From a virus (lineage: Duplodnaviria > Heunggongvirae > Uroviricota > Caudoviricetes), in the IMG/VR virus record IMGVR_UViG_2609460344_000022: 40,873 nt of DNA; one strand, 5' to 3'. Every line of letters begins with the position of its first letter. Position 1 is the stretch's first letter. The position numbers and the translations under genes were made by a program. Positions 7,332 to 10,144 of this stretch are shown here, in pieces. The notes beneath the pieces were generated by a model. It did not search any database and was not told where the DNA came from. It saw only the letters and a list, made by a program, of their open reading frames with translations.

Positions 7332-8045
7332 TCAGGAGGTCAGTTCTTTAAGTTTCTGAACCGCTTTATTCATTTCATCCATGCAGTCGATGAACTCGTC
7401 CAGTTTAAGCTGCATTTTTCCGGCGGCCTGAAGAATTTCAAGTTTTAAGGGCGCGAGTTTTTTGTTGAATACATCATCTTCCTGACGTTTTTTCTCCGCA
7501 ATTTCGGCGGCTTTCAGCAATTCTTCTGCCTGTTTTCTGAGTGTTTCTGGTGAAGGTGAAACTACTTTGAGGTTATTCATTTCAGATTCCTGTTGTTGCA
7601 GAATTAATTTATTACATTCTCTGCGCAAGCGTTTCATTGCAGATTCGCACTTCTTACAATAAATGGCTCTCCCGTCACGTTTGCTGGCATCTGAATAAAA
7701 ATCATCGACTGATTTTGTCTGCCCGCATCTGGTGCATAATTTTGACTGAAGGTCCTTAATGATGGTCACGTTTCCTTCCCGTTTGGGATATCCATATTTT
7801 TTGTGGCGGAAAAAGGTTACTCCGTTACCAGAACCTTCTTTTCTGACCTTAAATACAATGATGCTTTCCCGTTTATCGATAAAATCGATGAGCTGGTTTC
7901 TCTCCTTGCCTGACAGTTCGGCAAATGTCTTAACTTTTTTAGTAACTTCCGTAAGTCGAACGCCATCAGGCATTTTTTCAACGAAGTTTTTAATCTCTGC
8001 AAGTGGACGCCATAATTTTTGCGGCAAAACTGAAGGCGTTGTCAT
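7332..8045 (-). CDS. Hypothetical zinc-ribbon / coiled-coil protein
   Basis: 237-aa ORF immediately downstream of N-like gene (3-nt gap); CTRCGQ...CKKCES zinc-ribbon motif followed by Lys/Glu-rich coiled-coil C-terminus. Confidence 0.55.
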   Translation of the reverse strand: MTTPSVLPQKLWRPLAEIKNFVEKMPDGVRLTEVTKKVKTFAELSGKERNQLIDFIDKRESIIVFKVRKEGSGNGVTFFRHKKYGYPKREGNVTIIKDLQSKLCTRCGQTKSVDDFYSDASKRDGRAIYCKKCESAMKRLRRECNKLILQQQESEMNNLKVVSPSPETLRKQAEELLKAAEIAEKKRQEDDVFNKKLAPLKLEILQAAGKMQLKLDEFIDCMDEMNKAVQKLKELTS

Positions 8046-8048
8046 TTA

Positions 8049-8432
8049 TCACCTCGCTGTTATTGTTCCTGATTTGCGATAGCCTGCCGCGTAAATGGCT
8101 ACGTTTGGAAGACATACACCAGTTTCTGGTTGCTTATGTCCAAACTCATTCGCGTACACAATGGCCGCTCGCTCCAGATTGCGTCTGTATTCTTTCTGTT
8201 GCCAGATCACGTCCTGTGCCATGAACTTAATTGGCTTAGCGTCTTCTATGCGCTCAGGCGTTTCGTGAGTACCTTTAGCCTGAATCTGCGCTCTGCTTAG
8301 AGTAGGGCGGTGTAATACTTCTGAACTTATTGCTTCTTCGCGGGCCAGCACGCCGTTAGCTAATGCCTTTGCCTTTAAACGCTCACGACGACGAGAACGT
8401 GAATTGCCTTTGAACTGAGTTCTGCGTGTCAT
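8049..8432 (-). CDS. N: N-like transcription antitermination protein
   Basis: 127-aa basic protein with N-terminal arginine-rich motif (TRRTQFKGNSRSRRRERLKAKA); first gene downstream of candidate pL/nutL. Confidence 0.6.
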   Translation of the reverse strand: MTRRTQFKGNSRSRRRERLKAKALANGVLAREEAISSEVLHRPTLSRAQIQAKGTHETPERIEDAKPIKFMAQDVIWQQKEYRRNLERAAIVYANEFGHKQPETGVCLPNVAIYAAGYRKSGTITAR

Positions 8433-8597
8433 ATAGACCTCCTGATGAACTTTGGTGGTGTGGTGGGAGGGAGACCCATTTCGACCTGTTTCGGCCTACT
8501 TCAATTCGGCAATAGTCCTGCAGGCCTCGCCGCTTTACGTGCGACATATTCCCGTCCATGAACCCTTCACCACACCCCAAAGTTCACTTTGGTTATT

Positions 8598-8664
8598 GCG
8601 CTTTGTCAGCGCCGTAGATTCATATTCGAATCGTTGTATATTCACCGCCCTGGTGAGTAGAGCG
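8598..8664 (-). promoter_or_regulatory. Candidate nutL (boxA-like + boxB hairpin)
   Basis: Minus-strand CGCTCTACTCACC (boxA-like) then hairpin GCGCT-GACAA-AGCGC; same hairpin/loop and flanking CTACG as the nutR candidate. Confidence 0.5.
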
Positions 8665-8679
8665 TCCTGCTGATGGGTG

Positions 8680-8890
8680 AACTTTATCGGAATGATAAAT
8701 TGATGGCAATAGCAAAATGATAAATTCTTTTGGTTTTCAAATATCGTATTGATTCTTATGGTGTTTTATTTTGTTGTAGGAATTCGACAGGATAAATAAA
8801 GAGATTTGAGGTAGATCTGAATTGCGATGTTTAGTGAGTTGTATCTATTTATTTTTCAACAAATACAATTGGTTATGTGTTTTTAGGTGG
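8680..8890 (-). promoter_or_regulatory. Candidate OL/pL region
   Basis: AT-rich region with three TGATAAAT-type repeats (also present three times between cI and cro); possible TTGCCA-N17-TAAAGT promoter on minus strand. Confidence 0.4.
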
Positions 8891-8899
8891 AGGGATCGA

Positions 8900-8931
8900 G
8901 AGGAAAAGAAAACCCGGCGCTGAGGCCGGGC
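8900..8931 (-). terminator. Intrinsic terminator ending the kinase operon
   Basis: Minus strand: CCCGGC-CTCA-GCGCCGGG hairpin followed by TTTTCTTTT immediately after the small ORF stop. Confidence 0.6.
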
Positions 8932-9095
8932 TAGATTTTAAAGTATTTATCTTTTAGAGATGTAGATGTAAAATTTTTCGCCTTTGAAAATTTTTTGTCA
9001 TCAGAAGGGCTTATGAACTCATCTTTTTTGTAGGGAACCGCTAATGCTGCATCACGTCTGCGAGGCAGCTTGCTTACTTCCTCGCGCTTTTTCAT
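8931..9095 (-). CDS. Small basic protein (54 aa), translationally coupled to kinase
   Basis: ATG 2 nt after kinase stop (TAATCATG) with AAGGA SD inside kinase 3' end; Lys/Arg-rich (MKKREEVSKLPRRRD...); not in ORF track (<60 aa). Confidence 0.4.
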   Translation of the reverse strand: MKKREEVSKLPRRRDAALAVPYKKDEFISPSDDKKFSKAKNFTSTSLKDKYFKI

Positions 9096-9097
9096 GA

Positions 9098-10144
9098 TTA
9101 GTTATCCTTTAATAACCTATACAGTTTTGTAGGGGTACATCCTGAGGATATTGTTAAGTTCGTAGCACGCCTTTTCCGCCCATCATCGTATAAACGAAAA
9201 CCAGTAGTAGACGAATTTTCTGCGTCAAAAACTATAGACAGTATAGCGTCCCCAGACTTTTTTTGCCATTCGCATGTGCCGTTAGTTGGTTTCGTCATCT
9301 GTAGACGCCAGTCAAGAACGCCATCACTTATAGCTGAGAGATCGTTTAGTACATCTAGTACTGATTGATATCTTTCATTTGGATCTACATGAATGCATTT
9401 GTTTACTATTGTTATCAATTTTTTATGTATATGGGGAGGATATTCTTTTAATGGATAGCAGCCATTAATTATCGACTCTCTGAGTTGTTCAATCGTGCTA
9501 AATGCAGATCTTTCTCTTTCAAAATTATCATGTCCAACACACATTCTATATATGGTTAATCCTGCCTGATATATGTCATATGTGAAATTATAATCATTTG
9601 TTGATAAAGAAAAATATTCCGGTGGCACATGAAAATGATATCCAAACTCAGGCGCAGCTCTCGATTCCTCATTGACTAACTGAGATAATCCAAAGTCAGA
9701 TAGCATGGCCTCATTTCTGTTTGATATCATGATGTTATTAGGTTTTATATCAAAATGCATAAGACCTTTTGAGTGTATATGATAAAGTCCACTTAAAAAT
9801 TGAATAGAATACCGTATTATCTCCCTGCTTGTAAGATTATTTTTTTTCATTAATTGGTTTAGCGAACCATTATGATAAAATGGCATGGCTATATAGATAT
9901 TGCTCTCACATTGAGCAGCATACTGAACTTGCACAATATTTGGATGTGCATGTTTATAGAGAAGCCTTGCTTCATTAAAGTAGTCGTCGTGGTTAGTGTT
10001 TTCTTTTTTTTCTATTTCTTTAATCACCAAGTCATGAGCTAGGTGTCTGTCATGAGCCAGATATACTTTTGAAAAACAACCCTGTTCTTCTAGATCACGA
10101 ATCCATTCGAATTCTACATCAGCTCTTTTGTATGGAGTTAGCAT
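9098..10144 (-). CDS. Eukaryotic-like Ser/Thr protein kinase (Stk-like)
   Basis: 348 aa; catalytic loop HFDIKPNN, DFG motif (SDFGLS), beta3 Lys (VIKEI); strongly AT-rich; located between cI and pL. Confidence 0.8.
   Translation of the reverse strand: MLTPYKRADVEFEWIRDLEEQGCFSKVYLAHDRHLAHDLVIKEIEKKENTNHDDYFNEARLLYKHAHPNIVQVQYAAQCESNIYIAMPFYHNGSLNQLMKKNNLTSREIIRYSIQFLSGLYHIHSKGLMHFDIKPNNIMISNRNEAMLSDFGLSQLVNEESRAAPEFGYHFHVPPEYFSLSTNDYNFTYDIYQAGLTIYRMCVGHDNFERERSAFSTIEQLRESIINGCYPLKEYPPHIHKKLITIVNKCIHVDPNERYQSVLDVLNDLSAISDGVLDWRLQMTKPTNGTCEWQKKSGDAILSIVFDAENSSTTGFRLYDDGRKRRATNLTISSGCTPTKLYRLLKDN

Follow-up and report, generated by a model that had tools for sequence, protein, structure and literature searches.

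Does the short open reading frame (ORF) directly behind a phage protein kinase gene encode a protein, and is this protein part of the kinase system? The question is raised by a 40,873-nt sequence of a virus of the Caudoviricetes (IMG/VR record IMGVR_UViG_2609460344_000022), which was analysed as a whole and is referred to as the window. A preliminary description made from the sequence had pointed out an ORF of 54 amino acids (aa) at this place, thought to be translationally coupled to the kinase gene and to encode a possible regulator or substrate of the kinase module. Taken as a whole, our results tip the balance moderately towards the following statement: the ORF is a coding gene, the last cistron of the lysogenic operon and a member of a three-gene cassette, and its product would be a bound regulatory ligand of the kinase.

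The small ORF downstream of the kinase gene

The position directly after the kinase stop codon and the Lys/Arg-rich composition reported for the ORF proved to be correct; the strand, which had been left unstated, is the minus strand. The gene and its junction with the kinase gene are as follows:

8931..9095, minus strand: small protein gene, 54 aa plus TAG (ATG at 9095-9093, TAG at 8933-8931); L0081 in 933W, vb_24B_12c in phi24B, PHROG 4063
9093..9109, minus strand: coupling junction, consisting of AAGGA (9109-9105), TAA (9100-9098), TC and ATG (9095-9093)

The product, MKKREEVSKLPRRRDAALAVPYKKDEFISPSDDKKFSKAKNFTSTSLKDKYFKI, contains 12 Lys and 4 Arg (30%) versus 8 Asp/Glu, with a net charge of +8, an isoelectric point (pI) of 10.0 and a grand average of hydropathy of -1.13. 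The TAA of the kinase gene and the ATG of the small ORF are separated by only the two nucleotides TC (TAATCATG, exactly the letters given in the preliminary description), and the reverse complement of 9160 to 8860 reads ...TTATTAAAGGATAAC TAA TC ATG AAA AAG CGC.... The Shine-Dalgarno (SD) element previously placed inside the kinase 3' end is the AAGGA of the junction, which lies 9 nt 5' of the ATG and within the last kinase codons. This is the geometry of translational coupling, with a start codon a few nucleotides past the upstream stop and an SD element inside the upstream gene. When the downstream sequence of the window was shuffled, 1.5% of cases contained an ORF of 50 or more codons with its start between -4 and +10 nt relative to the kinase stop. 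Therefore, the arrangement is beyond chance.

The window represents the immunity region of a 933W-type Shiga toxin (Stx) phage. Positions 8850-10200 are 99% identical to Stx-converting phages of the 933W group, and the chromosome of E. coli cM8a matches the window over this region with 100% identity. The small ORF is accordingly an already catalogued phage gene, all members of which are labelled hypothetical. It corresponds to L0081 of 933W (AAD25426, 1999; 98% identity, with one differing residue, N41S) and, at the same place after stk and before the terminator tM, to vb_24B_12c of phi24B. In RefSeq it appears as 'hypothetical protein' (WP_164722425.1 / WP_000745483.1), a protein encoded by 223 out of 5426 complete E. 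coli genomes, and residues 1-54 of 54 match phrog_4063 (E = 2.8e-39), a family labelled as of unknown function. The term 'unannotated' used in the preliminary description therefore has to be withdrawn; it reflects the ORF-length cutoff applied there. The related expectation that default annotation would miss the ORF holds in part, since the Prokaryotic Genome Annotation Pipeline (PGAP) skips the intact ORF in E. coli A2 (NZ_CP028772, L055 3566-3730; P0002-type sequence), but it fails for 933W, phi24B and RefSeq, where the gene is annotated. The same small gene is called in the other RefSeq genomes listed, so that the calling of this 54-codon gene is inconsistent. No match to the peptide was found in Pfam, NCBIfam-type or PADLOC models, and a literature search on this gene returned nothing on its function and no ribosome-profiling or proteomic statement.

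We then compared the peptide with its relatives. A word-indexed search of 5.8 billion proteins returned ten clusters, with copies in, among others, Serratia fonticola (85% identity), Salmonella (69-72%) and Pragia fontium (54%). When 1.84 billion representative proteins were searched exhaustively with a profile, 11 representatives were obtained, mostly of 53-55 aa; two or three of them appear to be truncated by frameshifts, and two (73 and 80 aa) carry N-terminal extensions. Seven positions are invariant in 15 distinct peptides (P11, R13, R14, A19, Y22, L47, K50), and nine more are nearly so (K2, K3, R12, A16, A17, P21, F42, Y51, F52). The resulting core, P-R-R-R-D-A-A-x-A-x-P-Y, and the C-terminal motif L-K-D-K-Y-F-K are both present in the window copy, as MKK..LPRRRDAALAVPYK and SLKDKYFKI, respectively. 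The middle of the peptide is variable, with indels of 1, 2 or 4 codons and no frameshift.

The ratio of nonsynonymous to synonymous substitution rates (dN/dS) is 0.25-0.28 for the window copy compared to Pragia and Serratia, and 0.54 compared to Salmonella. Third codon positions account for 29 of the 60 differences between the window and Pragia, and within the PRRRDAA core these two differ by synonymous changes only. An Rfam scan of 7800-12200 on both strands gave nothing overlapping 8931-9095 at E <= 1; the nearest match was a chance-level rliG at 8841-8885 (21.9 bits versus a gathering score of 55). Together, the dN/dS values, the synonymous core changes and the lack of an Rfam match argue for a protein under purifying selection and not for a chance frame or an RNA element. 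Furthermore, each of the 112 motif-bearing loci that were fetched has an undamaged small ORF, including some in which the kinase frame is broken. These comparisons clearly show that the small ORF is a genuine protein-coding gene.

A cassette of three genes

The small gene and the two genes upstream of it form a trio, the other two members of which are located in the window as follows:

9098..10144, minus strand: stk, 348-aa Hanks-type protein kinase (Pkinase, E = 2e-46)
10138..10599, minus strand: RuvC-fold protein of 153 aa (L0083 in 933W, 'res' in phi24B), overlapping the stk start by 7 nt (ATGCTAA)

This trio was found in 933W-type phages, Serratia, Pragia and several metagenome and viral contigs. 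It adjoins thrS and a prophage baseplate gene in Serratia, and an integrase remnant and tail genes in Pragia. Other settings are next to an integrase and ydcA, to SSB and primase genes or to two dinI genes, as well as the position after cI in other lambdoid prophages. Judged from this distribution, the trio is a mobile three-gene cassette that encodes a RuvC-fold protein (~152 aa), a non-RD Hanks kinase (~348 aa) and a basic peptide (~54 aa).

The junction between the kinase and peptide genes always consists of the stop codon, 2 nt and ATG in the nine lineages compared, all of which also have a purine-rich SD-like element (AAGGA in eight, GAGG in locus L063). Pragia retains AAGGA even though the C-terminal residues of its kinase differ (KEC instead of KDN). 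The coupling geometry proposed for the window was thus recovered in identical form across nine lineages, and the conservation of the frame in homologous prophages, which the preliminary description had set as the check, was borne out by this junction, by the dN/dS of ~0.25 and by the in-frame indels. At the other end of the kinase gene, 4-7 nt are shared with the RuvC-like gene. Divergence runs in parallel in the three proteins and is somewhat faster in the peptide; the identities in L063 are 59% for the RuvC-like protein, 55% for the kinase and 44% for the peptide. A close kinase is found in 39 phage records and the peptide likewise in 39, and the accessions listed coincide.

The RuvC-like family comprises 75 clusters from Enterobacterales and beyond. 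Since this family greatly outnumbers the small ORFs that have been called, we chose the RuvC-like gene as an independent bait, fetched 71 viral-contig loci by its profile alone and then examined the ORF 3' of the kinase gene. In 32 of 32 diverse loci with a kinase match, a set in which kinase identity goes down to ~39%, the kinase stop was accompanied by an ORF of 50-64 aa whose start lay between -4 and +10 nt relative to it. Lineages at medium distance retain the peptide core (PPSRRDAAVASPY, HPRRRESAIALPY, APSRDSSTKAIPYG, SPKREMLTTATPYG). At ~40% kinase identity the peptide can no longer be aligned with confidence; the diverged ORFs keep their length, an N-terminal MK(K), a basic motif around an Arg in the middle and, at the C-terminus, an aromatic-hydrophobic pair. 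Nearly all tabulated peptides are basic (25/26; pI 9.3-10.7). Shuffled downstream regions contained such an ORF in 0.6-6.8% of the trials per lineage, and the real ORF is present in 21 of 21 lineages. In these comparisons, the small third gene appears as a constant of the RuvC-like/kinase architecture. The strong conservation of the frame and the presence of a small ORF at the kinase stop in all 32 loci make a functional tie to the kinase module likely.

A more distant relative of the locus was found in Bacillus phage SPbetaL7 (L067 2004-3762), where a RuvC-like gene (35% identity, E = 7e-18) overlaps a kinase gene (39.5%) by 4 nt. Therefore, the RuvC-like/kinase pair is old. A 60-aa gene is located 23 nt 3' of this kinase gene. 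We rejected it as a homologue of the peptide: hhalign did not detect any relationship (probability 0.5%), and the shared 'PY' and 'KNKYIK' are too short.

Scans of a contig collection with one genome per species gave 67 pattern stretches for the peptide profile, none of which was confirmed, and one distant match (26% identity) for the kinase profile. As both scans were close to empty, this collection evidently does not contain these prophages. A metagenome scan returned a single locus, L058. The literature searched contained no paper describing a RuvC-like/kinase defence cassette. In PADLOC v2, the kinase alone has matches (mad6, E = 6e-50; PD-T4-6, E = 1e-37), the RuvC-like protein and the peptide have none, and no catalogued system is complete. 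What these comparisons add is that the module for Stk exclusion appears to be a conserved cassette of three genes.

The lysogenic operon and its surroundings

In the 933W record AF125520, the order of elements is pM promoter, cI, L0084, L0083, stk, L0081, tM, nutL and N. The window operon consists of cI, the DUF3024 gene, the RuvC-fold gene, stk and, as the last cistron, the small gene, followed by tM. In addition to the genes listed above, it includes:

11069..11773, minus strand: cI-type repressor (S24 peptidase domain), first gene of the lysogenic operon
10667..11008, minus strand: DUF3024 protein (L0084 in 933W; PADLOC candidate PDC-S43, E = 6e-42)
8901..8932, minus strand: intrinsic terminator (tM/tRM in 933W and phi24B) with an 8-bp stem, a 6-nt loop and a T tract

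Expression data for phi24B lysogens are consistent with this organization. Upon norfloxacin induction, RNA-seq gave a 3.6-fold change for vb_24B_12c, which was not significant (P = 0.14), compared to 1.8 for stk, 1.2 for res, 0.65 for vb_24B_13c and 1.2 for cI, whereas the genes just past tM (vb_24B_11c, ssb, gam) were up 43-137-fold (PMC4651098, Supplementary Information Table 4). The response of the small ORF resembles that of stk, res and cI and is unlike that of the genes beyond tM, which places it in the lysogenic cI transcript bounded by tM.

The 'strong intrinsic terminator' described immediately 3' of the ORF is indeed there. The terminator scan located an 8-bp stem (6 G-C) at 8932-8911, followed by TTCTTTTCCT, that is, a G+C-rich hairpin directly before a T tract, as is characteristic of intrinsic terminators. 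The predicted energy of the hairpin is -14.5 kcal/mol and its first paired bases fall within the stop codon of the small ORF. AF125520 labels this element as 'tM; putative terminator for pM transcript'. The same stem was also scored as terminator-like on the plus strand (8913-8930). The tM hairpin (CCCGGCCTCAGCGCCGGG plus T tract) likewise closes the cI operon in an E. coli prophage with neither the kinase gene nor the small ORF (L056 3516-3560). We regard it as an element shared among lambdoid phages, and possibly as a joint of recombination.

Stk of the window is 99.7% identical to that of 933W. All Hanks motifs are present, the catalytic loop HFDIKPNN is of the non-RD type, and the Tyr of the activation loop is invariant in all 20 lineages with a parsable loop. 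The signature D-x-K-x-x-N is of the Ser/Thr type, although the literature calls Stk a tyrosine kinase.

For the RuvC-fold protein, a sequence search of the PDB gave chance matches only. Its predicted structure has a mean predicted local distance difference test (pLDDT) score of 91 and a predicted template modelling score (pTM) of 0.87, and superimposes on RuvC of T. thermophilus (PDB 4ld0) with a template modelling score of 0.80. Residue 7 is an invariant Arg in the RuvC-like family; this position corresponds to the first catalytic Asp of RuvC (GIDPG motif). The RuvC-fold protein may therefore be a non-catalytic sensor and not a nuclease or resolvase.

The DUF3024 gene is present in 933W-type loci only and does not accompany the trio elsewhere. 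It is therefore a separate cargo gene in the same operon. The cI protein of the window matches that of 933W over residues 81-234 only (95%); its N-terminal DNA-binding domain is unrelated, and the mosaic joint falls inside cI. The window phage is therefore heteroimmune to 933W, yet carries the same cargo cassette. Outside the operon, three direct-repeat copies are found at 12619-12778 and 13458-13550 on the plus strand. They belong to overlapping families of 36 and 49 nt, which together span ~70-90 nt. Two copies lie just 5' of a replication-type gene of 360 aa (12809..13891) and one inside it. A 16-nt tandem duplication is located at 12690-12721.

Possible functions of the peptide

Stk of 933W is co-transcribed with cI and has been reported to be a tyrosine kinase and to exclude phage HK97 (Friedman 2011, Mol Microbiol 82:567, as cited in PMC3681748 and PMC3564112). 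According to PMC3681748, citing Friedman 2011, Stk has little or no activity in uninfected lysogens; infection by HK97 activates it, and the infection is aborted. The window contains the same kinase in the same operon. The exclusion, as cited in these two sources, is ascribed to one kinase gene, whereas our comparative data point to a unit of three genes.

How could the peptide contribute to this unit? Ribosomes that finish the kinase gene probably re-initiate on the small ORF, and by such re-initiation kinase and peptide would be made in a fixed ratio. The peptide would then bind directly to the kinase module as a regulatory ligand, acting as a restraint, a substrate-like element or an adaptor, and would determine how active Stk is; this kinase reportedly aborts HK97 infection of 933W lysogens. 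Our data document the gene, the purifying selection acting on it, the geometry of the junction, the synteny and the transcription with the lysogenic operon, whereas re-initiation itself, kinase binding and the sign of any effect are inferred. That the peptide acts on or with the module is suggested by the chained frames, the invariable synteny, the co-divergence of the three proteins and the conserved Arg-rich core followed by small residues and Tyr. When modelled alone, the peptide forms three short helices with low confidence (mean pLDDT 68, pTM 0.19) and is predicted to be hydrophilic and largely unstructured, as is to be expected if it acquires its fold upon contact with a partner.

If the peptide were a restraint, this would agree with the inactivity reported for Stk before infection and, by analogy to known inhibitors, with the R-R-R-D-A-A motif. 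Pseudosubstrate inhibitors of kinases, such as the protein kinase inhibitor (PKI) peptide with its R-R-N-A-I motif, carry an Ala in place of the phospho-acceptor. PKI-like peptides and the L0081 peptide are alike in being short and probably unstructured and in having an Arg cluster followed by Ala at what would be the acceptor place. They are not homologous, however, and the invariant Tyr22 of the L0081 peptide could instead be an acceptor itself. Positions 16 and 17 alternate between Ala and Ser among the lineages (DAS, DSS, ESA). The motif, this alternation and the low-confidence fold are compatible with a pseudosubstrate or substrate-like ligand, for which the motif by itself is not diagnostic. 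We also considered the core as a mimic of the kinase activation loop (SRAAPEFGY versus RRRDAALAVPY) and discarded this idea, as the loop varies, the core is fixed and the two do not co-vary.

Several observations speak against a ligand of the kinase module. Some copies of the peptide are found away from any kinase gene. In Salmonella (L005-L007 6001-6153), the order is cI, a 112-aa gene and the peptide gene, with GGAGG 7 nt 5' of the ATG in L005 and L006 and an intact core. In L013 (1244-1441), the peptide gene directly follows cI, possibly with an N-terminal extension of 11 aa and again with an intact core. The 80-aa fusion P0016 (L136 1025-1267), the core of which is also intact, lies beside a DUF2570 phage lysis gene. 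Moreover, the small ORFs of the most distant lineages, including Bacillus, are alike in position and composition only, and the literature searched contained no binding, phosphorylation or phenotype data for the peptide. Finally, if stk alone sufficed for the exclusion of HK97, the peptide would not be essential for that phenotype. The 112-aa gene of Salmonella was checked as a possible relative of DUF3024/L0084 and is unrelated. In 9 of 75 fetched 933W-type loci (duplicates included; L016, L026, L037, L043, L047 and duplicates), the kinase frame is shortened, with 249-310 codons open instead of 360, and the small ORF has its full length. A broken kinase gene next to an intact peptide gene is uninformative on the direction of the effect.

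The kinase-less copies, with their intact cores, could be a sign of autonomous function: the peptide could be a small 'moron' protein whose target, in the host or in a phage, has nothing to do with the kinase, and which merely tends to travel at the 3' ends of lysogenic operons beside the terminator. We regard this as unlikely, though to be taken seriously. The window copy lies after an Stk-type kinase gene behind a RuvC-fold gene, as do the others apart from four kinase-less members. Orphans are a small minority: among the fetched loci they account for 2 of 21 distinct peptides with the motif, to which the fusions P0016 and P0018 are added, and none occurs among 40 viral-contig loci. The orphans in L005-L007 and L013 lie 3' of a terminator-like hairpin, which makes their expression doubtful, and those of Salmonella could be leftovers of recombination, in view of these hairpins and the higher dN/dS (0.54). 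In addition, the stop-2 nt-ATG junction is kept in all nine lineages compared, and a small ORF follows the kinase gene even where its sequence is unrecognisable. It is also rather unlikely that the peptide is a partner of the RuvC-fold protein, for example a basic subunit that binds nucleic acid or modulates the sensor, in which case the kinase would come into play only at a later step. The RuvC-fold gene is linked to the peptide gene as invariably as the kinase gene, the peptide is as strongly basic as DNA/RNA-binding tails, and a non-catalytic sensor, as suggested by Arg7, may need cofactors. The start of the peptide gene is, however, chained to the stop of the kinase gene and not to the RuvC-like gene, and the identities co-vary equally with both proteins and so do not discriminate between them.

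Two further explanations do without a function of the peptide itself. Translation as such could matter if ribosomes near the tM stem shielded the 3' end of the operon from Rho or RNases or modulated termination. The stop codon abuts or overlaps a terminator stem in the window, Serratia, L009, L053, L059, L062 and the Salmonella copies. But the Pragia terminator lies at a distance of 14 nt, the T tract is missing in L058 and the hairpin of L063 is no more than weak. Furthermore, length, charge and motifs would not be maintained in an ORF that works purely in cis, the amino acids are conserved through synonymous changes at a dN/dS of ~0.25, and the invariant residues lie 30-40 codons away from the terminator. 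We consider this explanation quite improbable. A chance ORF within a non-coding 3' untranslated region or a small RNA, from which no protein is made, could account for the short length, the lack of Pfam, NCBIfam-type and PADLOC matches and the omission by PGAP in at least one genome. It can be practically dismissed in view of the selection at the protein level and the silence of Rfam on either strand (E <= 1), of the ORF occurring in every one of the 21 lineages at a chance frequency of 1.5% here, and of its integrity in all 112 motif-bearing loci despite kinase frames that are sometimes broken.

Like the trio, rexA-rexB of lambda and hex of 434 are non-essential genes that are read with the repressor in the lysogen and end at the immunity terminator (PMC3564112). 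Their products act on the superinfecting phage or on repressor stability (PMC3564112); Hex, with 158 aa, acts on the cleavage of repressor that RecA stimulates. In sequence, rex/hex and the trio are unrelated, and the trio, unlike rex/hex, also occurs far from any cI. Stk2 of Staphylococcus and PD-T4-6 are, like Stk, Hanks-type phage-defence kinases, and Stk2 causes abortive infection by phosphorylating many host proteins (PMC13276650). Both have been described as stand-alone kinases, whereas the Stk-type kinase is always located here between a RuvC-fold gene and a small peptide gene.

Going further, the trio could be a previously undescribed three-component abortive-infection system, in which the peptide would be a pseudosubstrate or antitoxin-like restraint, co-translated with the kinase in stoichiometric amounts, that is bound through its R-R-R-D-A-A / P-Y core and is released or overridden once an invading phage such as HK97 is sensed; the kinase-less copies would then be captured 'antidotes' against Stk-type defence. 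This picture is speculative, and we hold it to be doubtful in its full form. Stk of 933W is among the earliest described kinase-based phage exclusions and sits in Shiga-toxin prophages of enterohaemorrhagic E. coli. If the RuvC-fold gene and the peptide are obligatory, a system that has been studied and catalogued as one gene would really be three.

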